Shown piece by piece: positions 3,294 to 63,669 of a stretch of 64,000 nucleotides of DNA (its first letter is position 1; every line of letters begins with the position of its first letter). Both the position numbers and the translations under genes were made by a program. The DNA comes from Thermoanaerobaculia bacterium (GTDB lineage: Bacteria > Acidobacteriota > Thermoanaerobaculia > Gp7-AA8): assembly GCA_041748075.1 (NCBI GenBank), contig JBGTDX010000083.1:16383-80382 (forward strand), given 5' to 3'. The notes beneath the pieces are model-generated. The model was not told the DNA's origin and did not search any database. It saw only the letters and a program-made list of their open reading frames with translations.

Positions 3294-4189
3294 CCGGAGC
3301 CGCCGCGCTTCTTCTCGAGGCCGCCAGGCGGGAGGAGCTGCACCATTCGCTGATTCTTCACGGCCCCTCTCCGGCCGTACTTCTGGAAACGGCCGTTCGC
3401 GTCGCGAAAGCTCTGACGTGTCTCGAGAGAACTACCGGCGACGACTGCCTTTCCTGCCAGAAGATCGATCGAGGCAATCATCCCGACGTTCATTTGATAC
3501 AGATCTCCGACGACCGGAAGCTGATTTCGGCCGAGCAGGTTCGTGACGTTGTATCGTCCGCGACGCTCAAACCGTACGAAGGACGATGGAAAGTATTCAT
3601 CATCGAGCGCGCCGACGCGACCAGCGTCACCGCTGCCAATGTCCTGCTCAAGACCCTGGAAGAACCGACGGGCCAGACCGCCTTCATGCTCCTGACCCGC
3701 TCGCCTGACCTTCTTCTGCCGACGATTCGATCCCGATCACAATCGATCTACATCGGTCCCCCGGTCATGCCCCGCGCGACTGCCCTCCAGTCGCTGCAGG
3801 CCTCCCGATTCTCACGTGAAGAAACCCTGCACGGTCTGGAACCTGGAAGCTCCGCGGCACTCGCTTCCGGCATCGTCGAAGCGCTCGATGCGTACGCCAG
3901 CGACGGCGACAACGCAGCGCTCCTCGGCATCGCGCCACTGCTGGCGTCTCAGGAAGATGCCGGAACTGCTCTCGCACTTTTTGCTGCCGTCCTTCGGGAC
4001 CTTGCCGCGCTTCCACTGGAAGATCACCTCGATCCCGCGCGGGCACGACGAATCCGGGAGCGGCTCTCAGCCGCCACCCTGCTCTCCGCGGCCGCTCTCG
4101 CTGTTCGATCTCTGAGCCGTCTGGTGGTGAATGCCGACCCGCGAATGCTTGCGGAACAGTCCCTGGCGGAACTGGCGCGAGAGAAGTAG
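3290..4189 (+). CDS. holB: DNA polymerase III delta-prime subunit
   Basis: AAA+ clamp-loader-like N-terminus (HHSLILHGPSP), zinc-module cysteines (CLERTTGDDCLSCQKI), and a 4-bp overlap with tmk (ATGA), which is the classic tmk-holB linkage. Confidence 0.8.
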   Translation: MTGAAALLLEAARREELHHSLILHGPSPAVLLETAVRVAKALTCLERTTGDDCLSCQKIDRGNHPDVHLIQISDDRKLISAEQVRDVVSSATLKPYEGRWKVFIIERADATSVTAANVLLKTLEEPTGQTAFMLLTRSPDLLLPTIRSRSQSIYIGPPVMPRATALQSLQASRFSREETLHGLEPGSSAALASGIVEALDAYASDGDNAALLGIAPLLASQEDAGTALALFAAVLRDLAALPLEDHLDPARARRIRERLSAATLLSAAALAVRSLSRLVVNADPRMLAEQSLAELAREK

Positions 4190-6691: not shown

Positions 6692-6963
6692 CGCCGCTCC
6701 TGCCCCTCCCGCCCAAGGCTCGACCTCACAGCCACGTGTGCCGTGTGATCTCCGCTCGAGGACACCATGGCATTATCACCGGAATGGGATTCAGCGGCAA
6801 ATACGCAGCGCTCATTCGCTTCGATTCAAGTGAACCAGCTGTGTCATTCCGAGCGCAACGAAACACCTTTTTCGCCTGGACAATATTTTAGCCGGCCGAT
6901 ACGTTACCCTGCGCGATCCACTCATGGGCAGGACGCTCTGAGGTCTGCCACGGGAGTTGAGTA

Positions 6964-10607: not shown

Positions 10608-10634
10608 TTCGGTGGCGTCAACTCAGAGCCCTAC

Positions 10635-10722
10635 GTGTCATCCTGAGCGCAGCGAAGGATCCCCTCAGATCTTGCGATACAGCCGGTAGGCGGGGGATCC
10701 TTCGCTGCGCTCAGGATGACAC
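10635..10722. repeat. palindromic MITE-like repeat, copy 1 (inner palindrome GTGTCATCCTGAGCGCAGCGAAGGATCCCC ... GGGGATCCTTCGCTGCGCTCAGGATGACAC); a degraded outer arm tggcgtcaact lies upstream
   Basis: Read directly; the same roughly 30-bp arms recur at 47237, 54355, 59731 and 63348. Confidence 0.7.
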
Positions 10723-10830
10723 TCGCTACTGCGCGGACTAAACCTCCTTTGCCGTGCGGCACACGCAAAATGCATGATGAATGCGCGATCATCTTGAATC
10801 CCACACCCCTGGGGTTCACAATCTCCGCGC

Positions 10831-12513: not shown

Positions 12514-12522
12514 GATAGACTA

Positions 12523-12625
12523 GTGACGAATGACGAATGACGAATGGAGACGACGGCGTCGCACCCACGCGAAGGGTGGGTGTGCATTCGTCATTCGTCA
12601 CTCGTCATTCGTCATTCGTTGATCA
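12523..12625. repeat. long hairpin with heptamer-repeat arms (GACGAAT x3 against CATTCGT x4-5), with a nested GC hairpin in the loop
   Basis: The sequence reads gtgacgaatgacgaatgacgaatgga ... cattcgtcattcgtcactcgtcattcgtcattcg. It lies between the cstA stop and the M64 peptidase start. Confidence 0.6.
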
Positions 12626-40243: not shown

Positions 40244-42469
40244 ATGACCAGCCAGACAGACCGCTCGATCCGATCGGAAGCGCCGTCACACGCGCTCACG
40301 ATTCCGCTGCCGGAGCTCGACTGTGTCTCGTGCGCACACCGCCTTCGACTCCACCTGAGCAGAATCGAGGGACTCGATGTCAAACTGAGTCTCGCTGAGA
40401 AGTCCGTGACCCTGCCGCCCGCGTCCACTCCCGACTCGATTCAACAGGCGGTCGCAGCGATTCGGAACAACGGATTCGAGCCCGGAGCCGCGCGTATCTT
40501 CATTCCCTTATTCGATCTGCCTGCAGGCTCCCCTGCGGCGGTCGATATCGAAAATTCTCTCGAAGGCTCCGAGGGCGTCCTTCGCGCAATCGTGCACGTG
40601 ACCGACCAGGCGGTAGAGGTCTGGTATGTTCCCGGAAGAATCGACATCGCAGAGATCCGCCAGCAGATCCGCAGAACGGGCCACCGCAGCGAGGCACCCG
40701 CGGGATCGGCGGAGATTGAGAGCCGGCTGGACAAGACTCATCGCCGCATGCGTCTCGAGGCCATCGCCGCGGTGGCCGCCGCGATCCTGATCGCATTTCT
40801 CTCCATTCCTCTGGCGGGCGAACGAACTCCGACCGTGGCCGAACCAGTTGTTTCGGCTTCCCGGACTTTCGTGCAGGGCATTGTTCCGCAGCTCTTCTCG
40901 ATCGATCCGGTTGGGCTGGAGATCACGATTCTGTTTGTAACGTTCGGCTTCCTCGTCTGGCTCGGACGGAGCTGGATGGAATCAGGCTCGTTTACCCTTC
41001 TGGGACGGAATCCCGATTCGAACACGACCGCAGCGGCAGCTGTGTTCGTCCTCGCGGCTGGATTGACCATCTCGTCGATCCGTGTCGCGTGGCTGGAAGT
41101 CCCCAGCTACGCGTTTCCCGGATACGCCACGCTCTTCTGGATGATCTCGCTCTATTCACTGGCACGCCTGATGGAATCCCGGGAAATGCGACGAATCCGA
41201 ACAAAAGATGCGGCCCTCGGAGTGAGGTCTACAGCCCGAGGCACCGAAATCCAGCAGCGCGCTGAAACGACCATGTCGCTCACATTGAGAGTGATCATCT
41301 GCGTGGCGATCGCATCGTTCGTGCTCTGGTTCGACTTCGCACCGGATTCTCCATTGCTCTACGCCGTGATCGCTTTCGCGGGGATCATGATCGTGGCTCT
41401 CCCATCGCTGTTCGGCCTCGCGGCTCCCAGCGCGATTTCCACCGGAATGCAGGAAGTCACGAGGCGAGGCGTCATCGTCCGGGACGCACAGGCATTCGAA
41501 GACCTGAGCCGCCTGCGAAAAATCGCAATCCTCAAGGAGGGAGTCCTTACGGAGGGGCGCCCGGCGACGTCCGATTTCGTCCTTCTTGGCGGAATCGACC
41601 AGCGGGAATTGCTCGAGGCCGCGGCTTCGCTCGCGGCGCTCGCGCAATCCGACCTCGGGCGAGCCGTCGTCGCGCGGGCCGGACAATTCACCTCTCGAAG
41701 GGTTTCGGAATTTCACGAATCTCCCGGCAGGGGATTTCGAGGGATGGTGAATGGAAAAGAAGTCGCCGCCGGCACTCCCCGCTTTGTCGAGTCCCTTGGC
41801 TTCTCACTCGAAGGCCTTGATGAAGAGCTCACCCGCTATGGAAGCGAAGGAAAAAATTCGCTGGTCCTCGCCATCAAAGGGAACATAGCAGGCTTGATCG
41901 CCTTGCGTGATGCCCCCCTCGAAGGGGCAGATCGAGCCGTCGCGCGTCTCGAGGGGCTCGGGGTCACAACTCACCTGTTCGGTTCCGACGAAACAGCAAC
42001 ACTCGAGGCGATCGCAGCCCGGATGGGCATCCGGCATGTGACTGCTGAGGTCGAGCCAGGGATGTTGAGGGGATCGATGGCCGATGCGAAGGAGCACGGC
42101 AAACCGCTGGCTGTGCTCTGTGCGGAAAGGGGCGACGGTCTTCTGCTCACCGCCGCCGATCTCCCCATCGCGTTCGCGGAAGCGTCGAGCGAATCGCTCG
42201 ACTACGCCAGAGTCGTTCTTCCAGGCGCGGGGCTGGGTCCCATCGCCGATGCAATCGTCATTTCGCGAGCCGCATCTCGAGCAGCGGCACGCCGCATACG
42301 GTGGAGCGTGGGATATCACGCGGTCATGGCGCTCTTCGCGACCCAGATTTTCCATCCCCTGTTCGGAACCCTGATCTCACCGGCGCTCCTCGCCCTCGTC
42401 ATGTTCTCGGCGATGGGGGCGGCAATCTGGAACAGCCGGAGCTTCGAGAAAGAGGCAGGAACGCTTTGA
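40244..42469 (+). CDS. degenerate P1B-type (heavy-metal) ATPase homolog with two HMA-like domains; catalytic motifs lost
   Basis: Overall P1B topology (HMA domains, 8 TM, P/N-domain region) is present. DKTGTLTEG is replaced by LKEGVLTEG, the TM CPC by LPS, SEHPLA by QSDLGRA, and GDGxND by GDGLLLTAAD. The A-domain loop (TGES) is reduced to about 35 aa. Confidence 0.6.
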   Translation: MTSQTDRSIRSEAPSHALTIPLPELDCVSCAHRLRLHLSRIEGLDVKLSLAEKSVTLPPASTPDSIQQAVAAIRNNGFEPGAARIFIPLFDLPAGSPAAVDIENSLEGSEGVLRAIVHVTDQAVEVWYVPGRIDIAEIRQQIRRTGHRSEAPAGSAEIESRLDKTHRRMRLEAIAAVAAAILIAFLSIPLAGERTPTVAEPVVSASRTFVQGIVPQLFSIDPVGLEITILFVTFGFLVWLGRSWMESGSFTLLGRNPDSNTTAAAAVFVLAAGLTISSIRVAWLEVPSYAFPGYATLFWMISLYSLARLMESREMRRIRTKDAALGVRSTARGTEIQQRAETTMSLTLRVIICVAIASFVLWFDFAPDSPLLYAVIAFAGIMIVALPSLFGLAAPSAISTGMQEVTRRGVIVRDAQAFEDLSRLRKIAILKEGVLTEGRPATSDFVLLGGIDQRELLEAAASLAALAQSDLGRAVVARAGQFTSRRVSEFHESPGRGFRGMVNGKEVAAGTPRFVESLGFSLEGLDEELTRYGSEGKNSLVLAIKGNIAGLIALRDAPLEGADRAVARLEGLGVTTHLFGSDETATLEAIAARMGIRHVTAEVEPGMLRGSMADAKEHGKPLAVLCAERGDGLLLTAADLPIAFAEASSESLDYARVVLPGAGLGPIADAIVISRAASRAAARRIRWSVGYHAVMALFATQIFHPLFGTLISPALLALVMFSAMGAAIWNSRSFEKEAGTL

Positions 42470-46946: not shown

Positions 46947-47220
46947 TCAGAATACGCCACGCACGGACTCGAGCCCCAGATACATCACGGACGAGCTCGC
47001 AGGAGAAAAGACAATCGAATTGACCCCATGATGGTCGTTGTGCGTCGTGGTCAGCGAGTCCTCTCCCGCATCGTACTTGTAGAGGTCGGTTCCGTAATCG
47101 AAAACGTGGGTTCCGAAAACCCAGTACAGGATGTCGATATCCTCGGGATGTGCGGCCATCACTGGTCCATTCGTAATCGTCACTTCTGCAGACGCGTCGA
47201 CCACCGGTACGAAGGTCTCG
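46947..47220 (-). CDS. hypothetical small protein; 5' end and start overlaid by a MITE copy
   Basis: Coding-like GC3 bias. The N-terminal 25 codons of the ORF (to 47282) are repeat-derived (..HPERSEGSP..). Confidence 0.25.
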
Positions 47221-47236
47221 CCGGAATCAGTGCGAT

Positions 47237-47324
47237 GTGTCATCCTGAGCGAAGCGAAGGATCCCCTTCCTCGAGGCGTCACGGCAAGTCTTCAGGGGAT
47301 CCTTCGCTTCGCTCAGGATGACAC
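47237..47324. repeat. palindromic MITE-like repeat, copy 2 (subfamily with right-hand extension ccacaatgac-n7-gtcattcg reaching about 47365)
   Basis: Read directly; shares its inner loop and right extension with the copy at 63348. Confidence 0.7.
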
Positions 47325-47436
47325 CCCGTGTTCATTTCTCACCACAATGACCGTCCTGTCATTCGCCGGCTCGGGATGTCACATCGTCTGACTTCTTCAC
47401 AGGATGTCACTTGGTTCAGGTCGCTCGAGTGAGCGA

Positions 47437-48365: not shown

Positions 48366-48410
48366 GCACGCAAGTCTTCCGGGGATCCTTCGCTTTTCTT
48401 CAGATCCCCT
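48366..48410. repeat. truncated half-copy of the MITE-like repeat
   Basis: gcacgcaagtcttccggggatccttcgct matches the right half of copies 2 and 5. Confidence 0.5.
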
Positions 48411-52202: not shown

Positions 52203-54178
52203 TTCCGGCCGCCCGCGGCACCGGTCTCGAGCTCAGCCCGACGAAGGAAAACCGGAAGCGAAACTTCCACGTGCGTCCCGCTCACCGGATCACTGGCGAG
52301 ACGGAGATGCGCCTCTTCGCCATAGAGAGCGCGCAGACGATCCTCCACGTTTCTCAGCCCCACTCCCCGCCTACGACCCTGCGCGATCTCGATCTCGCTC
52401 GCGGCACTGCCTGTGTTCGATACCGTAATCACAAGACGTTCGTCGTCTCCGTCCGCATCTGCTGCGCGGGCGACGAGCGAAACGTCTCCACCCTGGCGGC
52501 TTTTCGCAATTCCATGCTTGATCGCGTTCTCCACCAGTGGCTGGAGAATCAGCGACGGAATGTCTATCTCGAGCAGTTCGTCCGGCACGTCCACCAGCAC
52601 CGTCAGCCTTTCCTCGAATCGTTCCCGCTCGATGTCGAGATAGGCCGTAATGAGCGAGAGCTCTTCCTTCAGCGTGACCGTGGAGGCGCTCGATCTCAGG
52701 ACCCCTCGAAGAAGCGAAGTGAGTTTCATCAGGGTCTTGCCCGCTCGCTCAGGAGAGACCTGCACCAGCCATGTGATCGTGTTCAGGGCGTTGAAGAGGA
52801 AATGTGGATTGATCTGCGCGCGAAGGGCCCGAAGCTCGGCCTCGGTCGCGAGCTTGCCCATCTCCTGCTCCCGCGCGGACTGAATCATCCTCTCGCGCAT
52901 GATGCGCAGCGCGTCGATTCTCCGCGCGATGATGTTGGCAGCGTTCAGAAGCATCTGGTCGTCGTCGGACAGCAGCCTTCGCCCTCCCGCCAGGGGTCCC
53001 ACGACGATCACGTAGTGTGGAGCCTCGCTCGTCGGAACCGCGATCGTCGCCGTCGATTCCACGAGTCCATTCCGCGAATTTTCGGGTGGATCGACCGCCC
53101 AGCTCATCGTCCGCGCCAGCAGTGCCGGCTGCAGAAGAGCGCAGGCGCGGTCGAGCAGCCGCTCGTCCGATTCTTCTTCCGCGGCGATGGCAGCCAACTC
53201 CTGCTGCAGTCCCGCATAGTCCGCCCGCCGGAGCACGATCCGGTCCACGAACCAGCTCGAAGCGCGGCTCATCAGCGGGTAGAGCAGCGCGGTGCCGACC
53301 CAGAGAACCAGCAACGTCCCGGCAACTACAGGATCTCCATCTGCTGCATTGGATGTGATCACAGGCTCTGCCACGGTGACGAACAGTCCAGCCGCGACGC
53401 CGACCAGCATGAAGAGGGCAAGGGCGCGCTTGAGAAAGATGTCGGCGAGCGCAAATCGGTAGTCCTGATAAAGGATCGCAAAGGCAAGCGGCAGTGAAGC
53501 GTGATGTCCCACGAGCTCGGTCACCCACGATTCCTGACCCTGATCGTGCTGGCTGAATCGGATCGCGAGTACGGCAAAGATCGAGAGCGCAATGATCCAC
53601 CAGCGCCGAAGCCATCCGGCCCATTTGCGCGTCATGAGCAGAAGCGGGATTGTGAGGACGACGAAACTGACCGTCAGCACTTCCATGGCCAGGCTCGAAG
53701 GCACCGAGGCATCCCGCACTCCTGCGAACTGCAACGTTGCAGCAACCGAGGCGACGCCATACGAGATCGCAATCAGGATGCCGGCGTTTCTCCGCTTCCG
53801 ATGATGATCAGACGCGATCAGAACGGAATGAACCACGACGGCGGGAAGAAATCCGAGTGCACTGAACGCGATCGCCATGAGGAATGGGTGGGGCTGGCCG
53901 ACACCCAGATCCCGCACTCCGTACGCTGCCAGTCCTGCTACGTTCCACACCAACCCCAGAATGGCGGTCGCGATCGGCAGACGATCGGGAAACGAAGCAC
54001 TCCCTGAGCCCGAAGTCCGGAACGGCCGTCCCCGAAGAACCAGCCCCATGAGCATCGCATAGAGCGCGGCCCCGGTAAGAAAGCCGAGTATGTGCACGAG
54101 TGCGGCGAAATTGGCTCCGCTCATGGTCCCCATCGCTTCGATTTGATGATGATCCCCACCGGCCGGCAAGTCTGTCAC
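52199..54178 (-). CDS. LytS/YehU-type sensor histidine kinase (multi-TM 5TMR-LYT-like sensor, GAF-like, His_kinase, HATPase_c)
   Basis: HPHFLFNALNTITWLV is the LytS-type H-box; the C-terminus has the G1/G2 ATPase boxes. Confidence 0.85.
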   Translation of the reverse strand: MTDLPAGGDHHQIEAMGTMSGANFAALVHILGFLTGAALYAMLMGLVLRGRPFRTSGSGSASFPDRLPIATAILGLVWNVAGLAAYGVRDLGVGQPHPFLMAIAFSALGFLPAVVVHSVLIASDHHRKRRNAGILIAISYGVASVAATLQFAGVRDASVPSSLAMEVLTVSFVVLTIPLLLMTRKWAGWLRRWWIIALSIFAVLAIRFSQHDQGQESWVTELVGHHASLPLAFAILYQDYRFALADIFLKRALALFMLVGVAAGLFVTVAEPVITSNAADGDPVVAGTLLVLWVGTALLYPLMSRASSWFVDRIVLRRADYAGLQQELAAIAAEEESDERLLDRACALLQPALLARTMSWAVDPPENSRNGLVESTATIAVPTSEAPHYVIVVGPLAGGRRLLSDDDQMLLNAANIIARRIDALRIMRERMIQSAREQEMGKLATEAELRALRAQINPHFLFNALNTITWLVQVSPERAGKTLMKLTSLLRGVLRSSASTVTLKEELSLITAYLDIERERFEERLTVLVDVPDELLEIDIPSLILQPLVENAIKHGIAKSRQGGDVSLVARAADADGDDERLVITVSNTGSAASEIEIAQGRRRGVGLRNVEDRLRALYGEEAHLRLASDPVSGTHVEVSLPVFLRRAELETGAAGGRK

Positions 54179-54308
54179 AACGAAAAGCCCGAATTGACCG
54201 ACGAACGGCCGGAGCGAGGCTACCGATGGGAGAAAACGCGACGGACAGCGGGAAATTCTTCACATCACTCTATCGGACCGTGACGCGTCGGCTCACCGGG
54301 TTCGAGCC

Positions 54309-54480
54309 CGGACTGGTGCCCCAATGGCGTCAACTTAAGGACTGAGCACGAGCAAGTGTCATCCTGAGCGCAGCGAAGGATCCCCATACTATGGGCTGGG
54401 ATCGCAAGGCTTTGGGGGATCCTTCGCTTCGCTCAGGATGACACCTTGTGCCTTAAGTTGACGCCATTGGGACTGGTGCC
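54309..54480. mobile_element. MITE: 12-bp target-site duplication (ggactggtgccc), perfect 19-bp TIRs (CAATGGCGTCAACTTAAGG) and the nested inner palindromic repeat
   Basis: TSD at 54309-54320 and 54469-54480; TIRs at 54321-54339 and 54450-54468; inner palindrome at 54355-54443. Confidence 0.7.
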
Positions 54481-54496
54481 CGGCGAAGCAGCGAGC

Positions 54497-57223
54497 TCAC
54501 CCCTTCGGCGGCGACCAGTGCACGATCACGTTGTGCGGCTCGTTCAGGGACTCGTCCGAGATCACCATGAGAAACCTGCCGTCCCGCGCGACGTCGAACC
54601 AAACGATCTCCTCGGATACCTCGAACAGAAATCGCGGCTCCGGCCGTGCCAGATTCGCGCTCGTTTCGAGATTGACTTCGTAGATCTTGTTCTCACGCTC
54701 ATAGTACAGAGCTCGCCGCTCCCGGTCCCAGATCGGGACACGACCCCCCTCGGTCGAGATCTGGATGCTTCGTCCCGGTCCCGGAAACGGCTTTAACCAG
54801 ACTTCGTCCCGTCCCGTTTCGCCGGACGTATACGCGACGAAGAGCCCATCGCGAGAGAATCGCGCTCCAGTCTGCGATTCCGGTACAATAAGGAAGGGGC
54901 GCGCATTCGGTTCCCCCTCCAGATCGGCCAGCCACAGGTCGTTTCGGGAACCGGGATCGAATCTGTAGTAGACGACGACCTTCCCGTCGGGTGACACGTC
55001 GCAGGGGTGCGTGAGATCATCCGAACCGACGATCACTCGTTCCTCTCCCGAGCCCTCGAGATCCTTGATGAAGATGTCCGGGCGTCTCAACCGGTCCGAA
55101 TCAAAGACAAGGGCATTCCCCGAGGGGGTCCAGACCGGATTCGCTTCCTCTGCCGGATGCGTGGTGAGCCTGCTGCGCGTATCGCGGCTCAGCCCATAGA
55201 GCCAGAGATCACTCGTCCCGGTGCGCGTGTCCCTGAGGTCGAACGCGACCTGCTGGCCATCCGGGGAGATCGCCACGGAAAAGCCACTCACGCCTTCCAC
55301 CAGGGCGGCGCCGCGACTGCCATCCCGATCGAACCATCGAATCGAACTGTTGGAATCCGCTTTCCTGTAGCCGATCGTTCCATTGCGGGCGGAGGTGAAC
55401 GAGGCGCCTCCCGTCGGCATGAAGTAGTTGACCCCACGCACCACCGGGATCGGCTTTCCCGTGAAACGGAGTGCCTTCTCGTCAAATGGCATCGCCACCA
55501 GAGTCCCGTCGACCACATGCAGCAGGTGCCCCGAGTCGAGGAGATCGAACTTCGAGCCGATCTCCCCCACCTCGGCCGTGTCGGGCGAATCGAGCCGGCC
55601 CGAGCGCAACTTGTAGCTGTTCCTCTCCCGCGACGGTTCACGAGTCAGCGACATATAGAGAAAGCGGTTCCCGTTGCGCAGAAACTTCGGATACATCGGC
55701 GCGATTTCGAATCGACCAGGCTCCGGCGCGACGATCCGCTCGCTCGTGCCTCCCAGCGCCGATACCCGAAAGATCCCGTTTCCCTCGGTCGCGAACAGGA
55801 TGACGTCCTCGGGGCTCCACGTGCCCCCGCGAGGGATACCCTGCACCGCCGAGATGTCGCGCGAGGTTCCTTCGACGATGTCCATCACCTTCAGCCGCCC
55901 ATCCTCGATCACCGCGAGCTCGTTGCCACGCGGCGACCAGCATAAAAGGCTCATCCGCCCGCTGCCGGGAAACATCTTCAGCGAGTCGGAGCCGAGCTCC
56001 CGCAGACCGATGACCCATGCCCCGTCAGGTCGCTTGACGCGCATAGCGACGTTGCGGCCATCCGGAGAGAGGAGAGGATCACCCACATCGACGTATTCGG
56101 CCGTCCGGCCTGGGAACGACAGGTGGATGGTCTCCGGATCCGAAGGAGCAGTCACGTACCAGTACAGATTCGATGCGACCAGGGCGAGTGCTGCGAACCC
56201 TCCCAGCAGCCAGGCCAGCCGCGACCGATGCTTTCTCCGGAACGCGAGCGGAGCAGCGACTCCCGCCTCCGAGCCTGCTTCGCTGATCCACTGGAGCTCG
56301 CTCGCGATGTCGTGCGCCGATTGCCATCGGTCGTCCGGATCTTTTTCCAGGCACTTCCGAACGACATGATCGAGCGCGGGGGGCGACATCGGCGCCACGC
56401 TCGATATCGGCTCCGGCTGCTGCGAGACGATCGCCGCGATCAGACTCGTCTTCGACGCACCCTTGAATGCCCGTCGCCCCGTCGCCATCTCGTAGAGCAC
56501 CGCACCGAAGGCGAAGATGTCTGTTCGCGCATCCGCCTCGAGACCTTCGAGCTGTTCCGGCGCCATGTACTGGAAGGTGCCGAGGATGGTTCCTTCCGCC
56601 GTCAGCGGCGCCTTCTCAGTCAGCAAGTCGGATGCGTGGGTACCGGAAACTGGTGCGGCGGCGATTCGGGCAAGGCCGAAGTCGAGCAGCTTCGCTCCGC
56701 TGCGCGTGAGCATCACGTTGCCCGGCTTGAGATCGCGATGGACGATGCCGCGGCGGTGTGCTGCCGCGAGCGCCTGGGCGATGTGCTGGCCGTGGCGGAG
56801 CACCTCCGTCATGGGAAGCGGCCCCCGTTTGAGGCGGTCGGCGAGCGATTCTCCCTCCAGGTACTCCATCACGAGAAAGCTCGTCCCGCCCTCGTGTCCC
56901 ACGTCATGGAGCGTGCAGATGTGCGGGTGGCTGAGTGCGGAGATCGCCTTCGCCTCGCGATCGAAGCGCGCGTTCAGCTTCGCGTTCGCCGCCAGCGCTG
57001 CGGGAAGGACCTTGACTGCCACGTGGCGGTCGAGCCGCGTGTCGAGCGCCTTCCACACCTCTCCCATTCCCCCCGCGCCGATGGGCGCGACGATCTCGTA
57101 CGGTCCGAGGCGCGTACCTGTCTTGACGGGCAAGGGAACAGCATAGAGAGTCGAGCCGTCCTGGTCCACTCCTCGTCGAACCCGTACCCCGTGCAGTCCT
57201 GGACCGTGGCAGGTGCGTTTCAC
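54497..57223 (-). CDS. Ser/Thr protein kinase with a TM helix and a C-terminal TolB-like (PD40/WD40-like) beta-propeller
   Basis: GAGGMGEVWKA, HRDLKPGNVML, DFGLAR, then repeated PD40-like units (SPDGQ...DLWL). The start is uncertain because the first M is far upstream of the kinase core. Confidence 0.8.
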   Translation of the reverse strand: MKRTCHGPGLHGVRVRRGVDQDGSTLYAVPLPVKTGTRLGPYEIVAPIGAGGMGEVWKALDTRLDRHVAVKVLPAALAANAKLNARFDREAKAISALSHPHICTLHDVGHEGGTSFLVMEYLEGESLADRLKRGPLPMTEVLRHGQHIAQALAAAHRRGIVHRDLKPGNVMLTRSGAKLLDFGLARIAAAPVSGTHASDLLTEKAPLTAEGTILGTFQYMAPEQLEGLEADARTDIFAFGAVLYEMATGRRAFKGASKTSLIAAIVSQQPEPISSVAPMSPPALDHVVRKCLEKDPDDRWQSAHDIASELQWISEAGSEAGVAAPLAFRRKHRSRLAWLLGGFAALALVASNLYWYVTAPSDPETIHLSFPGRTAEYVDVGDPLLSPDGRNVAMRVKRPDGAWVIGLRELGSDSLKMFPGSGRMSLLCWSPRGNELAVIEDGRLKVMDIVEGTSRDISAVQGIPRGGTWSPEDVILFATEGNGIFRVSALGGTSERIVAPEPGRFEIAPMYPKFLRNGNRFLYMSLTREPSRERNSYKLRSGRLDSPDTAEVGEIGSKFDLLDSGHLLHVVDGTLVAMPFDEKALRFTGKPIPVVRGVNYFMPTGGASFTSARNGTIGYRKADSNSSIRWFDRDGSRGAALVEGVSGFSVAISPDGQQVAFDLRDTRTGTSDLWLYGLSRDTRSRLTTHPAEEANPVWTPSGNALVFDSDRLRRPDIFIKDLEGSGEERVIVGSDDLTHPCDVSPDGKVVVYYRFDPGSRNDLWLADLEGEPNARPFLIVPESQTGARFSRDGLFVAYTSGETGRDEVWLKPFPGPGRSIQISTEGGRVPIWDRERRALYYERENKIYEVNLETSANLARPEPRFLFEVSEEIVWFDVARDGRFLMVISDESLNEPHNVIVHWSPPKG

Positions 57224-57362: not shown

Positions 57363-59660
57363 ATGACAATCGAATCGCCTTTACGTTCAGCCGTTCTCTG
57401 GATCTCAGCAGCGATCCTCTTCGTCTCGCTCGCCGCATTCCCCGCCTCGGCCCAGAGCACAGGGAGCGTTACCGGTCGGGTCATCTCCAGCACAGGAGCC
57501 GTCGCGGCCGGAGTCGAAGTCTCGCTCGTCGAACTGCGGCGCAGAACGACGACTTCCGCGGATGGGACCTTTCGGTTTGACAGGGTCCCTCCCGGGCGTT
57601 ACCTGGTTCTTGTCGAAAGCCCGCGCCTCGGATCGAGTGTGGGAAGCATCCAGGTCACTCCAGGTGCGACTGCCGAGGTCGACATCGAGCTCGATCTCGC
57701 CGTTCACTCGGAACAGATCGTCGTCAGTGCGGGGCCTGAGAGCAGGGCCGCGGACGACGTTTATCAGCCGATCGATGTGGTCAGCGGAGACGAACTTGCC
57801 CTCCGGATGCAGCCAACGCTGGGAGAGACGTTATCGAACCAGCCCGGCGTCAGCTCGACGTACTTCGGGCCCGCATCCAGCCGGCCCGTAATCCGCGGGC
57901 TCGGAGGCGACAGAATCCGGATTCTCGAAGAAGGCATCGGGACGGGCGATGCGTCCAACGTCAGCCCCGATCACGCCGTCACGTTCGATCCGATGAACGC
58001 CGACAGAATCGAGATCGTCCGCGGCCCGGCAACTCTCCTGTACGGCAGCAACGCCGTCGGCGGTCTCGTGAACATCATCGACAGCCGCGTTCCCGAGTAC
58101 GTTCCGACCTCCCCGATCGGTGGGTCGGTCGATCTTCTTTTCGGTACTGTTGCCGACGAGCGCAGTGGCGGTGTGGCTCTCCAGGGTGGCGCAGGCTCCT
58201 TTGCATGGAATCTCCGTCTGGGCCGGAGGGAGACGAATGACATCGAAATTCCCGGACCTGCCGCGCACGAAGACGACCATGATGACGACGATCACGACGA
58301 CGAAGAGTTCTCAGGAGTGCTGGAGAACAGCGCTCTGAAGAACGACACCGGCTCTCTCGGTGTGTCGTGGGTTGGTGAGCGCGCATTCTTCGGAGTCGCA
58401 GTGAGCGGGCTCGATTCCTTTTACGGAGTGCCGGGACACGGCCATCATGACGAAGAGGGTGAGGAGGAAGAGGAAGAAGAGGAAGAAATCGTCAGCATCG
58501 ATATGCGGCAGCGGCGCGTCGATCTTCGCGGCGAGATCCGCAATGACGGCGGCCTCTTTTCCGCTTACAGACTGCGTGCCGGCCGCACAGATTACAAACA
58601 TACAGAGCTCGAAGGTGACGAAATCGGCACGCTCTTCACCAATGACGCCACCGAAGCACGCATCGAGGCGATCCATCGGGCCATCGGACCGTTCCGCGGT
58701 TCGATCGGGCTTCAGCTTTCGAACCGCGATTTCTCAGCGGTCGGAGCCGAAGCGTTCGTGCCTCCGAGTGAGACCGACACCCTCGCCCTCTTCATCTTCG
58801 AGGAGACCGGGAGCGGGCCGCTGCGCTACCAGTTCGGTGCGCGATACGAAAAGCAGGACGTGTCGGCACGAATCAACGATCTTCCCAGCCGATCCTTTGC
58901 AGGTCTCTCCGGCTCTGCCGGCGTGATCTGGAGAGCGCCAGAGGATCCATACGCTGTTGCCGTTTCGGTTGCACGTGCGGTGCGCGCTCCCACGGCCGAG
59001 GAGCTTTACGCAAACGGTCCGCACATTGCGACGCGCTCGTTCGAGATCGGAAATCCTGATTTCGATGAGGAGACGAGTCTCGGGCTCGATCTGTCTTTCA
59101 GAAAAACCGAAGGACGCGTGAAAGGGGAGCTGAATCTCTTCGCCCAGCGCTTCGACGACTTCATCTTCGAGCGTCCCACGGGTGAAGAAGAGGACGAGCT
59201 TCCCGTGTTCCAGTTCGAGCAGGCCGAGGCGAACTTCCGCGGCGCCGAGGTTCATGCCGACATCGAGCTCTTTCACACCGAGCCGCATCACTTCGATCTC
59301 GAGCTGTCAGCCGACTACGTCCGCGGAACGCTCGATGGAGGCGGCAACCTTCCCCGGATCACTCCTTTACGCCTGGGCGCGGGCCTTCGCTACCGCGGCC
59401 CCCGAATCTGGTCGCTGGTCGAGGTGCGGGAGGTTGCGGACCAGAACCGCACCGCAGATTTCGAAGAGGAGACCGATGGCTACACCATGTTCAATGCGGC
59501 GGTCGGCTATCGATTCTTCCTCGGCATGACGATCCACGAGCTCGTGCTTCGGGGCACCAACCTGACCGACGAGCTCGCGCGCAGTCACGTCTCGCCGCTC
59601 AAGGAGCTCGCACCACTGCCCGGCCGCGACTTCAGCCTCGCCTACAAGGTGATGTTCTGA
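57363..59660 (+). CDS. TonB-dependent receptor with an N-terminal carboxypeptidase-regulatory-like domain and His/Asp/Glu-rich insertions
   Basis: Signal peptide, plug domain (IVRGPATLLYGSNAVGGLVNII), C-terminal beta-barrel ending in F. Inserts: HEDDHDDDDHDDEEF and GHGHHDEEGEEEEEEEEE. Confidence 0.85.
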   Translation: MTIESPLRSAVLWISAAILFVSLAAFPASAQSTGSVTGRVISSTGAVAAGVEVSLVELRRRTTTSADGTFRFDRVPPGRYLVLVESPRLGSSVGSIQVTPGATAEVDIELDLAVHSEQIVVSAGPESRAADDVYQPIDVVSGDELALRMQPTLGETLSNQPGVSSTYFGPASSRPVIRGLGGDRIRILEEGIGTGDASNVSPDHAVTFDPMNADRIEIVRGPATLLYGSNAVGGLVNIIDSRVPEYVPTSPIGGSVDLLFGTVADERSGGVALQGGAGSFAWNLRLGRRETNDIEIPGPAAHEDDHDDDDHDDEEFSGVLENSALKNDTGSLGVSWVGERAFFGVAVSGLDSFYGVPGHGHHDEEGEEEEEEEEEIVSIDMRQRRVDLRGEIRNDGGLFSAYRLRAGRTDYKHTELEGDEIGTLFTNDATEARIEAIHRAIGPFRGSIGLQLSNRDFSAVGAEAFVPPSETDTLALFIFEETGSGPLRYQFGARYEKQDVSARINDLPSRSFAGLSGSAGVIWRAPEDPYAVAVSVARAVRAPTAEELYANGPHIATRSFEIGNPDFDEETSLGLDLSFRKTEGRVKGELNLFAQRFDDFIFERPTGEEEDELPVFQFEQAEANFRGAEVHADIELFHTEPHHFDLELSADYVRGTLDGGGNLPRITPLRLGAGLRYRGPRIWSLVEVREVADQNRTADFEEETDGYTMFNAAVGYRFFLGMTIHELVLRGTNLTDELARSHVSPLKELAPLPGRDFSLAYKVMF

Positions 59661-59696
59661 TCCACAAAGCAGCACCCGAACAGCTTTCGCGCGCGT

Positions 59697-59843
59697 CAAT
59701 GGCGTCAACTTAAGGCCCGCGCAGGGGCAAGTGTCATCCTGAGCGCAGCGAAGGATCCCCTTACTACTGGCTGTTTCGCAAGGTCTGAGGGGATCCTTCG
59801 CTCCGCTCAGGATGACACTTCGGACCTTAAGTTGACGCCATTG
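59697..59843. mobile_element. second MITE copy with the same 19-bp TIRs and inner palindrome; no clear TSD
   Basis: TIRs at 59697-59715 and 59825-59843; inner palindrome at 59731-59818. Confidence 0.65.
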
Positions 59844-59951
59844 CGGCCCGCGCGAGAGTTCAACTGCAGTGAGGCTCGAGGGCCGAAAATGCAACTCCGG
59901 GCGACAAGTGTCGATTTAGAAATTTGCGGGCAGTCTCATCAATCGCAACCC

Positions 59952-60773: not shown

Positions 60774-62218
60774 AGGCCCGCCTCGGTACTTTCGATTGCC
60801 CGCTCTGCTGCAAGCGATTCGATGAATGCCCGCACGTCCGTCACCGTGATGACCCGCATGAGGAAGATCAGAACGATATACGAAACCGCGCCCAGCATCG
60901 CGCGCGCCAGGAGGGGAAGAGGTCCCGTGACCGCAACCAGGGCCAGCATCAGGCTCACCGTGATCGCAGGTCGCACGAGGTAACGTCCCAGAGGAACATG
61001 CCGTATCAGGATCCACGTCGCGATGTACCCAGCAATCAGTATGAACACCTCCGATGCGACCGTCGCTGCCGCCGCGCCGGTGAGACCGTAGTGCGGAATC
61101 AACACGATGTTGAGTACGAGGTTGATCGCAGCGGCGCCCGACATGATCCAGAAGTCCATCCCCTGGCGATTGAAGCACACCAGAATCAGACGATAGTTCC
61201 GGCTGATCGTGAGCAGCCCCAGAGCGAGGAAGAGCAGCTGCAACGGCTGCGTGGCCGCCGCGTACTCCTGACCGAACAGCAACGTTACGAGCGGCTCTGC
61301 GAGAAGCACCCCGCCGGCGACGACGCCCGGCACCAGCCCCATCGTGATCCGGGTCGAACGCCCCAGAAGGCTCTCGATCGTCCCGATACCGCTCGTGGAA
61401 GCCTTCGCGAAGATGGGACGGAGCACGACGTAATAGGAAGTCACGAGCAGCGTAGGCACCCAGACCACGCGGTAAGCCGCAGCGTAGAGTCCCGCCGGAG
61501 CCGACCCGAGGACCAGTCCGATGTAGATCAGATCGAAGTTGTGGGAGACCATCGCGAGACCCGCCGTTCCTGCGAGCGGTGCAGCGGCCAGCAGGAGCCG
61601 TTTGGCGACTTGTCTGTCGATGCCCGGCATGACCCGGCCGAACCTTCGAAACGCCATGACGATCAGAAAAGCCGACGACGCAAGGCGCGAGACCAGATAG
61701 ACGATCGGAACGAGGATCACATCCTCGGGACCGTGGACGAAGATCAGCACCCCGGTCAGCATCACCGCCTGATTCAGGATCTCGGCCGCGGCTGAGACGT
61801 GCATGAGCTGGGCGCCGAGAAACAGCCAGTCGAGATCTGCTGCCGTCGTCACGAGCGAGATCCCGTAAATCATGATGACGAGTGCAGTCACGGAAGTGAC
61901 CGGTGCGATTCCGACAAACAGAAGAAGTGCCCCGAAACCTGCAAGCGTAAGCACGAGCCGCAATCCGATGACGTTCCGCATGAGAGTCGTGGCGGGCAGG
62001 CTCTGCCGGGCAACTTCCAGGGGCGCGTACTGCATCAACCCGAAGTCGACGATCAGCGCGGCCCAGGCAAGCACGCCGGTTGCGAATGCCGTGATTCCGA
62101 AATTCTCGGCGGACAACACGCGCGTGAGATAGATCGTCGTTCCGAACAGGATCAGACGGCCGATGATCTGTCCGGTCGAGAGCAATGCGAGATTGCGGCT
62201 GAATGACGGAACCGTCAT
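60770..62218 (-). CDS. polysaccharide biosynthesis protein / Wzx-like oligosaccharide flippase (MOP superfamily)
   Basis: About 12-14 TM helices and an N-terminal LALLSTGQIIGRLILFGTTIYLTR Wzx-like pattern. The start at the internal ATG gives a 4-bp overlap with the upstream GT2. Confidence 0.7.
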   Translation of the reverse strand: MTVPSFSRNLALLSTGQIIGRLILFGTTIYLTRVLSAENFGITAFATGVLAWAALIVDFGLMQYAPLEVARQSLPATTLMRNVIGLRLVLTLAGFGALLLFVGIAPVTSVTALVIMIYGISLVTTAADLDWLFLGAQLMHVSAAAEILNQAVMLTGVLIFVHGPEDVILVPIVYLVSRLASSAFLIVMAFRRFGRVMPGIDRQVAKRLLLAAAPLAGTAGLAMVSHNFDLIYIGLVLGSAPAGLYAAAYRVVWVPTLLVTSYYVVLRPIFAKASTSGIGTIESLLGRSTRITMGLVPGVVAGGVLLAEPLVTLLFGQEYAAATQPLQLLFLALGLLTISRNYRLILVCFNRQGMDFWIMSGAAAINLVLNIVLIPHYGLTGAAAATVASEVFILIAGYIATWILIRHVPLGRYLVRPAITVSLMLALVAVTGPLPLLARAMLGAVSYIVLIFLMRVITVTDVRAFIESLAAERAIESTEAGL

Positions 62219-63237
62219 CGCGGAACCAGCGGAGCAGGTCCTCTGCCGCGATGGTCTCTGTCCCGAAACGACAGGATCGCGCCAATGAGGAATCCGGCGG
62301 TTGCGTAGAGGTAGTAGAGCCAGTGGAGAGGAATCGCCCGGAGCGCGAACAGAGTGCCTCGCTCCCGCGCAAGGAAACGGTAGAAATCGAGATTGAGCAC
62401 AACCAGCAGACCTCCCGCCACGAGACCTGCAGTCCCCGCGGGTGGATAAAAGGGCGCAGCAAGGATGAGCAGCAAGAGCAGCCACGCCGCTACGCCGCTC
62501 ACGCGATGATGCGCGCGGAGATTCAGGTCCGAGACGAGATCACGCCGGACAAACATCAGTCGCGACCATGGAATCGCGCGGTCGAACAGATCGGCCTTGA
62601 GCAGGGACACGAAGTTCCATGCCTTGAGGTGCGTGACTTGAATCTCTCGCACCAGACGGATCGTCTTACCGTCTCTCACGAGGCGCCCGCCGAGCTCGAT
62701 GTCCTCGATGGACGGCCGGCGAAAGCGCTCCGCGTCGAACCCGCCCGCCTCGAGAAATGTCTCCCGCCGCACGGCTCCGCACCCGGCCCAGAACGTCGAG
62801 GCCTCCTCGCTGCTCTGCTGATGAATGTAGTGGTGAAAAAGATTCTTGTACTGTGCGATGAAGCCCGGAGCCGCCGGCGTCCTGTCGTACGATCCGAAGG
62901 CCGCGTCGACTTCCGGGTGCGCGCGAAAGTAATCGACGAGCCTTCCGAGAGTGTCCGTATGGACCGCGCAGTCGGCATCGATGAAACAGAAGATTCCGCC
63001 ACGAGCGCGCCTGCTTCCGAGATTGCGCGCCGCCCCCGGCCCGCTGCGCACGCTCGTCGACAGCACCTCTGCGCCGAACCGGCGTGCAACCTCGGCCGAT
63101 GCGTCGGTCGAACCGTCATCGACGACGATGAGCTCGAAGCCGGAGAATTCCGAGGCCCGAAGGGCCGCGAGACACCGCTCGAAGAGGGCCCCGCCGTTGA
63201 ACACCGGCACGATCACCGTCAATTCTGCTACGTTCAT
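62215..63237 (-). CDS. family 2 glycosyltransferase with two C-terminal TM helices (polyprenol-phosphate sugar synthase type: GtrB/ArnC/DPM1-like)
   Basis: TVIVPVFNG...LIVVDDGSTDAS...FIDADC, and a C-terminal pair of TM helices. Confidence 0.8.
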   Translation of the reverse strand: MNVAELTVIVPVFNGGALFERCLAALRASEFSGFELIVVDDGSTDASAEVARRFGAEVLSTSVRSGPGAARNLGSRRARGGIFCFIDADCAVHTDTLGRLVDYFRAHPEVDAAFGSYDRTPAAPGFIAQYKNLFHHYIHQQSSEEASTFWAGCGAVRRETFLEAGGFDAERFRRPSIEDIELGGRLVRDGKTIRLVREIQVTHLKAWNFVSLLKADLFDRAIPWSRLMFVRRDLVSDLNLRAHHRVSGVAAWLLLLLILAAPFYPPAGTAGLVAGGLLVVLNLDFYRFLARERGTLFALRAIPLHWLYYLYATAGFLIGAILSFRDRDHRGRGPAPLVPR

Positions 63238-63347: not shown

Positions 63348-63432
63348 GTGTCATCCTGAGCGAAGCGAAGGATCCCCCTCGAGGCAATGCGGCAAGTCTT
63401 CAGGGGATCCTTCGCTGCGCTCAGGATGACAC
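63348..63432. repeat. palindromic MITE-like repeat, copy 5 (same subfamily as 47237, with a right extension to about 63470)
   Basis: Read directly. Confidence 0.7.
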
Positions 63433-63669
63433 AGCGGTTCATCGCTCGCCACAATGACGCGCCCGTCATTCGTATATTGCTCAATATAACGCGAGTTCAG
63501 TATTGTGAACCAAGGCTTTCTGCGGACTAATCGGGGAAGGTAACGACTGCGCTCTCCACTGACTGAAAAGCTGGCCGCGATTGGCGCGCCGGTCTCATTG
63601 GCCGCTGGCATCGCCCTCTTCACGCTCGCCGAGCCTCGCTTTCAGATTCTCGCTGCCGCTCTGCTGCTG

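Follow-up and report, generated by a model that had tools for sequence, protein, structure and literature searches.

The 94-amino-acid (aa) GIY-YIG nuclease SsnA of Neisseria binds the hairpin of the NTS repeat, CGTCATTCCCGCGMAVGCGGGAATCYRG, in one of the two DNA strands and only in single-stranded form, and cleaves a few nucleotides upstream of the hairpin (Chenal et al. 2025, PMC11893778). The gene is embedded in an NTS-ssnA-NTS architecture, the core of NTS is the repeat dRS3, and the wider class of such repeats is referred to as Ssn-related motifs (SRM) (PMC11893778). Outside Neisseria, the biological role of the Ssn nucleases and their hairpin repeats is open according to the same authors (PMC11893778). 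Here we analyze a 64,000-nt stretch of DNA from a Thermoanaerobaculia bacterium (contig JBGTDX010000083.1), termed the window, in which a 148-bp element at 54322-54469 is very probably a non-autonomous miniature inverted-repeat transposable element (MITE) of the IS4 family carrying an inverted pair of SRM-variant hairpin motifs. Both the MITE and the SRM are already-described kinds of element; their combination and the motif variant are new.

Two further groups of described elements are relevant to this locus. Insertion sequences (IS) of the IS4 family duplicate 9-13 bp of target DNA, a range that includes the 12 bp found here; IS4 of E. coli K-12 has the ends TAATGCCGATCAGTTAAGG and TAATGCCAGTCAGTTAAGC and an 11-bp target duplication. 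In the intergenic mosaic elements of Neisseria, dRS3 repeats flank variable RS units in long arrays.

Anatomy of the composite element and proof of its insertion

The interior of the 148-bp element is almost wholly made up of one inverted pair of 25-30-nt hairpin motifs, enclosed by terminal inverted repeats and a target-site duplication:

54310-54321: left copy of the target-site duplication, GGACTGGTGCCC, a perfect direct repeat; the orthologous site of a relative (L242) holds a single 12-mer
54322-54340, plus strand: left terminal inverted repeat, CAATGGCGTCAACTTAAGG, of IS4-family type, identical to the left end of E. coli IS4 at 13 of 19 positions
54356-54385, plus strand: left hairpin-motif arm, GTGTCATCCTGAGCGCAGCGAAGGATCCCC, a variant Ssn-related motif in sense on the plus strand, supported by compensatory changes across loci
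54386-54414: type I spacer between both arms, seen only within IS4-type terminal repeats at all loci examined
54415-54444, minus strand: right hairpin-motif arm, in sense on the minus strand, identified by arm-core matches
54451-54469, minus strand: right terminal inverted repeat, the perfect complement of the left one, found by repeat search
54470-54481: right copy of the 12-bp target-site duplication, a perfect direct repeat

The terminal repeat CAATGGCGTCAACTTAAGG has four matches in the window (54322, 54451, 59697-59715 and 59825-59843), compared to 0.03 expected by chance. The two 30-nt arms are 97% complementary, and the full 148-nt element is predicted to fold into one hairpin of -100 kcal/mol (z = -13). 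These features establish the anatomy of the element, parts of which had been recognized in a first-pass annotation made from the letters alone. The perfect 19-bp terminal repeats and the inner palindrome with 30-bp arms reported there are correct, whereas the 12-bp duplication, a real and perfect repeat, had been placed one base too far to the left. The same annotation called the insertion recent, which agrees with the perfect ends and duplication but holds in a relative sense only, since the two intact copies in the window differ by about 10%.

The element has a PD40-repeat Ser/Thr kinase gene (54497-57223, minus strand) on one side and a histidine-kinase gene on the other; it lies 15 bp beyond the stop codon of the former and upstream of the latter. 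It has the properties of a MITE: perfect terminal repeats, a target duplication that is single at an empty site, small size, absence of coding capacity and multiple copies. Two intact copies and one decayed copy are present in the window, and further ones in the metagenome-assembled genome (MAG) JTS-RE88 (L061 and L084).

The empty site was provided by the latter Thermoanaerobaculia MAG. A search for homologs of the kinase retrieved a protein with 77% identity (P0004) on a JTS-RE88 contig (L242) with the same gene order as the window, namely a TonB receptor, the kinase, the histidine kinase and a LytTR regulator. Read on the kinase strand, the window has gcttcgcc, GGGCACCAGTCC, the element, a second GGGCACCAGTCC and then gggctcgaacccggtgagcc; the relative has gcttcgcc, gggcacgactcg and gggctcgaccccggtgagcc, with one 12-mer, without the element, and with both flanks in alignment. 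This comparison had been named beforehand as the refuting test and its outcome favors insertion, because the 12-mer is single and the element absent in JTS-RE88. An insertion at 54310-54481 with a 12-bp duplication is therefore proven by the orthologous empty site, and, as the 12 bp are duplicated exactly at the ends of the IS4-type shell, the unit that moved was the whole shell.

Relationship of the terminal repeats to IS4

The terminal repeat and the left end of E. coli IS4 align in the same register. In a scan that covered one genome per species, the terminal-repeat 18-mer AATGGCGTCAACTTAAGG was matched exactly in at least 119 genome stretches. The matches listed include three Thermoanaerobaculia MAGs, Cardinium, Wolbachia, Legionella, Chlamydiae, Rickettsiales, Babeliales, Verrucomicrobiae, Bacteroidota and Clostridia, and the majority of them are MITE-sized pairs or single ends. 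In two loci from other phyla (L059 and L097), transposase remnants lie inside the same ends, and the L097 fragment matches the NCBIfam model NF033592 'IS4 family transposase' with E = 2.3e-15. A third locus (L250) encodes a 279-aa protein (P0241) with the DDE_Tnp_1 domain (PF01609) and an NF033592 match of E = 5.7e-29, within an element of 1052 bp whose left end is exact and whose right end has a single mismatch, flanked by the 10-bp duplication actgttcacc. The end identity and the presence of IS4-family transposase remnants between the same repeats link the ends to the IS4 family and support the IS4-like attribution of the first-pass annotation. The search for an autonomous IS with the same ends that it proposed found truncated partners in other phyla (L250, L059 and L097) and none in the 13 Thermoanaerobaculia blocks or the window. 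Of the first ten candidate open reading frames (ORFs) next to the terminal repeat in genome loci, every one was a host gene and none a transposase.

A survey of paired ends separated the copies by duplication length. Copies from endosymbionts, Legionella and Chlamydiae had 10-bp duplications, seven of them perfect, in targets resembling nnTGTTCAnn, whereas those from Thermoanaerobaculia had duplications of 12-13 bp (matching positions 12/12 in L104, 13/13 in L089, 10/12 in L002, 11/13 in L119 and 12/12 in the window). Thus, an 18-nt end that is identical base for base is shared by MITEs of Acidobacteriota and IS4-type elements of insect and amoeba endosymbionts, with duplications of 12-13 and 10 bp, respectively. 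The difference suggests that the enzyme acting in Thermoanaerobaculia is related and IS4-like but unseen, and we infer that an IS4-family DDE transposase acts in trans in the source genome.

Other Thermoanaerobaculia MITEs share with this one the terminal repeat and the adjacent 'ccygcgcag', and have unrelated interiors. Several of the IS4-type MITEs of this lineage are located inside GC-rich hairpin-like repeats (ccccggcttcagccgggg), at L089 2942-3400, L104 501-960 and L002 4063-4540. The same sites adjoin other repeated hairpins (gccgccgtaggcggc and gcccgcgtagcgggc), and the duplication spans most of the hairpin. This suggests that the Thermoanaerobaculia IS4-type MITEs prefer targets resembling repetitive extragenic palindromic (REP) sequences.

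Hairpin-motif arms and their association with SsnA-family genes

Each arm has the structure GTC-ATCCT-GA-GC-GNA-GC-GA-AGGAT-C, in which a GA/GA internal loop and a GC/GC stack lie between the 5-bp stem and the GNA triloop. The 5' GTC is present in 196 of 217 cores and the 3' C in 198, and the 5-bp stem is perfect in 182. Stem variants are compensatory (ATTCT/AGAAT, 7 cases; ACCCT/AGGGT, 3; ATGCT/AGCAT, 3; ATTCC/GGAAT, 2; GTCCT/AGGAC, 2), all four bases occur at the variable position of the triloop, and the fold predicted for a single arm is exactly the proposed structure.

A metagenome scan returned at least 120 stretches containing the arm. Among the matches listed, about 62 arms were paired with an inverted arm no more than 130 nt away, across spacers that varied widely, and about 80 were single; some formed tandem arrays. 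Such head-to-tail arrays occur at L124 416-540 (five units with a 33-bp period), L150 3299-3411 and L210 ~4050-4130. In many metagenome pairs, the 3' arm contains extra hairpins inserted between GATTCTTCG and CTCAGAATGAC. A Gammaproteobacteria MAG (L110, 2040-2240) has the same 25-nt arms with another spacer, inside an outer palindrome starting with TGTCATCCTGAGG in an AT-rich context, which indicates that the motif crosses phyla. A BLAST search of the palindrome against the PLSDB plasmids gave no match, and nothing relevant to the arm sequence was found in the literature. All-vs-all clustering of the ORFs within 1 kb of arms revealed no enriched family, the largest cluster being housekeeping genes with a metallo-beta-lactamase fold.

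The relationship to SRM became apparent from widely spaced arm pairs. In each of two loci, L164 and L208, such a pair brackets a small ORF with a GIY-YIG domain (PF01541, E = 1.9e-14 and 2.1e-12, respectively), and these are the only GIY-YIG ORFs among ~250 loci. A homolog search with the GIY-YIG proteins gave at least 7954 matches; the best 120 are 93-150 aa long and 69-100% identical, and carry names from Phycisphaerae, Acidobacteria and Chloroflexia. All four homologs selected by protein are flanked by motifs of the arm family, with pairs on both sides in L243 and L247, an arm and partners carrying insertions in L244, and single inverted arms in L249. The arm family therefore brackets GIY-YIG genes in six of six loci examined, two selected by arm and four by protein. 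The L208 protein is 49.5% identical over 96% coverage (E = 2e-19), and the L164 protein 42% identical (E = 1e-27), to a 94-aa ORF of N. gonorrhoeae that is located amid seven exact NTS repeats, as in the ssnA architecture. The source of this ssnA locus was two 2.17-Mb N. gonorrhoeae chromosomes, NZ_CP119140.1 and NZ_CP119142.1, which are filed as plasmids. These data establish that the arm family is associated with SsnA homologs and, as all six loci conform, identify the arms as Ssn-related motifs; the nested palindrome of the first-pass annotation is real, although it is not a generic one but an inverted pair of these motifs.

Singles, inverted pairs and tandem arrays are also the forms taken by REP sequences and bacterial interspersed mosaic elements (BIME), and every arm is itself a small hairpin with CTGA immediately 5' of the GCGNAGC mini-hairpin. 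The inner palindromes could on this basis be REPINs, that is, REP doublets forming hairpins, moved by a REP-associated tyrosine transposase (RAYT) or another HUH-Y1 tyrosine transposase, possibly the 'class 3' TnpA-Y1 of Acidobacteria with its CnGA-foot hairpins, the GIY-YIG link being secondary. Class 3 TnpA-Y1 genes of Acidobacteria have been reported with high-copy atypical hairpins (PMC6006769), and tyrosine transposases with flanking inverted repeats (TIRYTs) have been reported in the same phylum (PMC3733652); we take these reports as leads. However, the arms lack a GT[AG]G foot, and a regular-expression search found no ORF with HUH and Y motifs in the window or the ~250 loci, although a single-copy Y1 gene may lie elsewhere in the genome. 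GIY-YIG genes alone are enriched among the neighboring protein families, the GIY-YIG loci are bracketed by the motif without exception, and the motif keeps the NTS frame GTCAT...ATC. Since there were no HUH-Y1 matches, we regard the REPIN/RAYT explanation as a minor rival and very improbable.

Distribution of hairpin pairs in the window

The window contains 10 copies of the 25-nt arm core GTCATCCTGAGCG[N]AGCGAAGGATC, arranged in five inverted pairs (10637, 47239, 54358, 59733 and 63350), versus none in shuffled sequence. This corresponds to about one pair per 13 kb. In addition to the element at 54322-54469, the following copies and fragments were identified:

59697-59843, plus strand: second intact composite MITE with perfect terminal repeats and a type I pair, without a clean target duplication (paired-end survey)
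10611-10736, minus strand: decayed, inverted composite MITE with a type I pair at 10635-10722, one eroded terminal repeat, ggtggcgtcaact, and the other lost (124 nt, 87% to 59717-59840)
47237-47365, plus strand: type II pair (47237-47324) with a one-sided extension (47325-47365) containing aatgac-n6-gtcatt, without an IS4 shell (repeat comparison)
63348-63472, plus strand: type II pair (63348-63432) with the same extension (63433-63472; repeat comparison)
48368-48405: half copy with the end of a type II spacer and a truncated right arm (GGGGATCCTTCGCTT...; repeat family D2)
6841-6867, plus strand: degenerate single arm, gtgtcattccgagcgcaacgaaacacc (arm search)

The pairs are of two types that have the arms in common and unrelated spacers, which in the window are 26-29 nt long. 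The type I spacer, TTACTACTGGCTGTTTCGCAAGGTCTGA, was always enclosed by IS4-type ends (window 54358, 59733 and 10637; L061 and L084), whereas the type II spacer, TTCCTCGAGGCGTCACGGCAAGTCTTCA, is followed by a one-sided extension, GTTCATTTCTCACCACAATGAC..., and has no shell (window 47239 and 63350; L072). The first-pass annotation had described the inner palindrome as occurring alone at 10635, 47237 and 63348. This is accurate for the latter two, while the copy at 10635 is a decayed whole composite with a partial terminal repeat. Other elements of that description were recovered as reported, including the recurrence of terminal repeats and palindrome at 59697-59843 without a clean duplication, the half copy (near 48381), the degenerate arm at 6841 and the right-hand extension common to 47237 and 63348, which recurs in a relative.

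The copy at 63348 lies between a GT2 gene (62215-63237, minus strand), confirming the earlier assignment, and a partial membrane-protein ORF on the plus strand that had been called 'GT-C' and has no Pfam match. The small ORF at 46947-47282 also has no Pfam match and is possibly spurious, because its first codons consist of arm sequence. A recurring spurious peptide, ..HPERSEGSP.., which had been noted in the ORF track, is explained by the arms, as is a second one, ..VILSAAKDP..; the arms therefore need to be masked before gene calling.

At the JTS-RE88 site (L242 ~1042-1488) orthologous to window 59660-59950, we found a different, longer (~330 bp) and decayed MITE, whose ends belong to the same family and whose target duplication is 11 bp long, cggcccgg[g/t]cg; one copy of this duplication lies in a left flank that is missing from the window. 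The site is therefore old or re-used, and the changed left flank explains the missing duplication at 59697. The two MITEs may differ through re-use of the site or through replacement of the interior.

The position of the pairs bears on the possibility that the long hairpins are not mobile DNA but RNA elements selected in place, such as bidirectional terminators, mRNA-stabilizing 3' hairpins or RNase III sites. All 10 arms of the five pairs are intergenic, several pairs lie just beyond stop codons, and the hairpins are very stable; in addition, single arms show a weak excess in sense orientation downstream of genes (36 vs. 22, with crude ORF calls). Against this, the empty site in the relative reveals an insertion with target duplication, no T-run follows the hairpins, the spacers of the two subtypes are unrelated, and the substrate of the published SsnA is single-stranded DNA, not RNA (PMC11893778). 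At gathering scores the only Rfam match in the window was a tRNA; E-value mode yielded nothing but sub-threshold matches to microRNA hairpins, which we consider noise. We therefore consider it highly unlikely that the pairs are RNA elements maintained in place by selection, although the hairpins may have a side effect on transcripts.

A further alternative is a nested origin, in which a pre-existing empty IS4-type MITE was entered in its middle by a motif pair that was mobile, or by an SRM-ssnA-SRM unit in decay, and the motif pair rather than the shell spreads today. The unrelated interiors of the Thermoanaerobaculia MITEs with the same terminal repeat and 'ccygcgcag' would fit such an origin, and metagenome motif pairs are often situated within other, unrelated inverted repeats (L216, L217, L138, L233 and L110). 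On the other hand, the type I spacer is confined to the IS4 shell, the insertion at 54310-54481 duplicated 12 bp at the ends of the shell and hence moved all of it, and around the inner pair no duplication or junction is visible. We rate the nested scenario as possible but rather unlikely. Nested insertion as such concerns origin only; it is plausible and compatible with present-day movement of the IS4-type shell.

A second long palindrome is present in the window at 12514-12624, just beyond the stop codon of cstA, and is composed of tandem GACGAAT/ATTCGTC heptamers. The complement of the heptamer corresponds to the GTCATTC 'foot' of the hairpin motif, and the type II extension likewise contains aatgac-n6-gtcatt.

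Genes and repeats flanking the insertion site

A second kinase homolog, 94% identical (L241), could not be used for the empty-site comparison, as its downstream region differs: at L241 3957-4439, the sequence departs from that of the window ~15 nt after the kinase stop codon and continues into another gene. This divergence marks the junction between the kinase and the histidine kinase as a point of rearrangement among close relatives. In the comparison with L242, ~96 nt of non-coding sequence upstream of the histidine-kinase gene are identical (window 54167-54262 and L242 6762-6857), next to a kinase that is only 77% identical. This stretch may represent a conserved leader, a promoter or a small RNA. 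The histidine-kinase gene itself probably starts near 54133 instead of at 54178. A 25-nt repeat with the pattern TCGG..C..GG.TTCGAGCCCGGA, which resembles a tRNA T-arm, occurs at 54288-54312 and 40462-40486 (84% identical), and the former copy directly adjoins the target site of the MITE.

Discussion

We interpret the element at 54322-54469 as an IS4-family MITE that carries a pair of SRM variants. In the proposed mechanism, a DDE transposase encoded elsewhere would recognize both 19-bp terminal repeats and excise the element; reinsertion at a staggered 12-bp cut, followed by repair, would leave the duplication GGACTGGTGCCC. Hairpins of this kind are bound, on one strand of single-stranded DNA, by the small single-domain GIY-YIG nucleases of the SsnA family, which cut just upstream of them. 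By analogy, the source genome would encode a cognate Ssn able to bind these arms in single-stranded form, and the arms of the window would be putative cleavage sites for it. Because the three type I pairs ride in the IS4 shell, we infer that they spread by IS4-type transposition, while the two type II pairs, which have no shell, arrived in some other way.

Several observations weigh against this interpretation. With respect to the shell, the window contains no transposase, as the first-pass annotation had stated, no intact one with these ends was found in the 13 Thermoanaerobaculia blocks, and the copies that do bear a transposase belong to other phyla and duplicate 10 bp instead of 12-13 bp. 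Both NF033592 matches are under the curated cut-off (56.6 and 101.3 vs. 115 bits), which we attribute to truncation of the transposase proteins. The second intact copy, at 59697-59843, is without a target duplication. With respect to the arms, the DNA energy of a single arm, calculated with nearest-neighbor DNA parameters, is -2.7 kcal/mol (z from -0.6 to -1.1) and not significant, so that the hairpin claim rests on covariation. No ssnA homolog was found in the window, and the published SRM search string, HGTCWYN(0-2)YYVSBRHN(0-5)WNVSBRGN(0-2)RNCYNB, had no match there, whereas the NTS example passes it. Failure to match the string assigns the arms to a variant subfamily; since it had been compiled manually from 29 genomes (PMC11893778), the mismatch marks a variant and leaves a working relationship possible.

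The bracketing of SsnA homologs by arms allows a further hypothesis, in which SRM-ssnA-SRM is itself a mobile element and the inverted pairs without an ORF are its non-autonomous derivatives, moved or copied via single-strand cleavage by the GIY-YIG nuclease. We regard this as doubtful. If true, the mobility of SRM-ssnA-SRM would involve a chemistry of transposition or homing not yet described, and the IS4-type MITE shell would be a second, independent vehicle that spreads the target sites of the nuclease without the nuclease.

For the IS4-type MITE with its SRM cargo, two consequences can be noted. An abundant variant of the motif, frequent in Acidobacteriota as well as in metagenomes of soil and peat, escapes the published search pattern, and current repeat counts are therefore underestimates. 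Moreover, an unrelated DDE-transposon MITE can carry and multiply these motifs, which provides a concrete route of expansion independent of Ssn.

Comparison with known systems

Compared to REPIN/RAYT systems, the locus is alike in having inverted pairs of short hairpin repeats that form a long hairpin, single copies that are presumably remnants, and, in related loci, a small nuclease gene flanked by the repeats. It differs in that the nuclease is of the GIY-YIG type and not an HUH-Y1 transposase; neither a GTAG foot nor a Y1 gene was found.

IS4 of E. coli and IS4-family MITEs share with the element ends of 18-19 bp with the pattern xAATGxCG..CA..TTAAGG, identical at 13 of 19 positions, and a long duplication (11 bp in the K-12 copy and 12-13 bp here); the element also resembles them as small, non-coding and multicopy. 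In contrast, no autonomous copy was found in the Thermoanaerobaculia lineage, and the interior is a pair of Ssn motifs, not sequence derived from a parent IS. The copies with the same terminal repeat in Cardinium, Wolbachia, Legionella and Chlamydiae differ from those in Thermoanaerobaculia in the length of the duplication, and the targets of the latter are often GC-rich and hairpin-like.

The intergenic mosaic elements of Neisseria resemble the window pairs in that short conserved hairpin repeats bracket variable spacers between genes, but each unit found here is one tight inverted pair, with a 26-29-nt spacer of either of two types, and the units form no long arrays.

The closest likeness in the arms is to NTS and other SRM (PMC11893778). 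Both consist of GTCAT, a stem, a mini-hairpin of GC, loop and GC, the complementary stem and then ATC; both are high-copy and intergenic and occur as singles, inverted pairs and clusters; and both bracket genes for single-domain GIY-YIG proteins of ~95 aa, which here are 42-50% identical to the Neisseria protein located among NTS repeats. The arm described here has a 5-bp stem, a GA/GA internal loop and a GNA triloop, whereas NTS has an 8-bp stem and a tetraloop. Also in contrast to NTS, the host is a soil member of the Acidobacteriota, the variant is known here from sequence alone, and the motif pair is the cargo of a DDE-transposon MITE.

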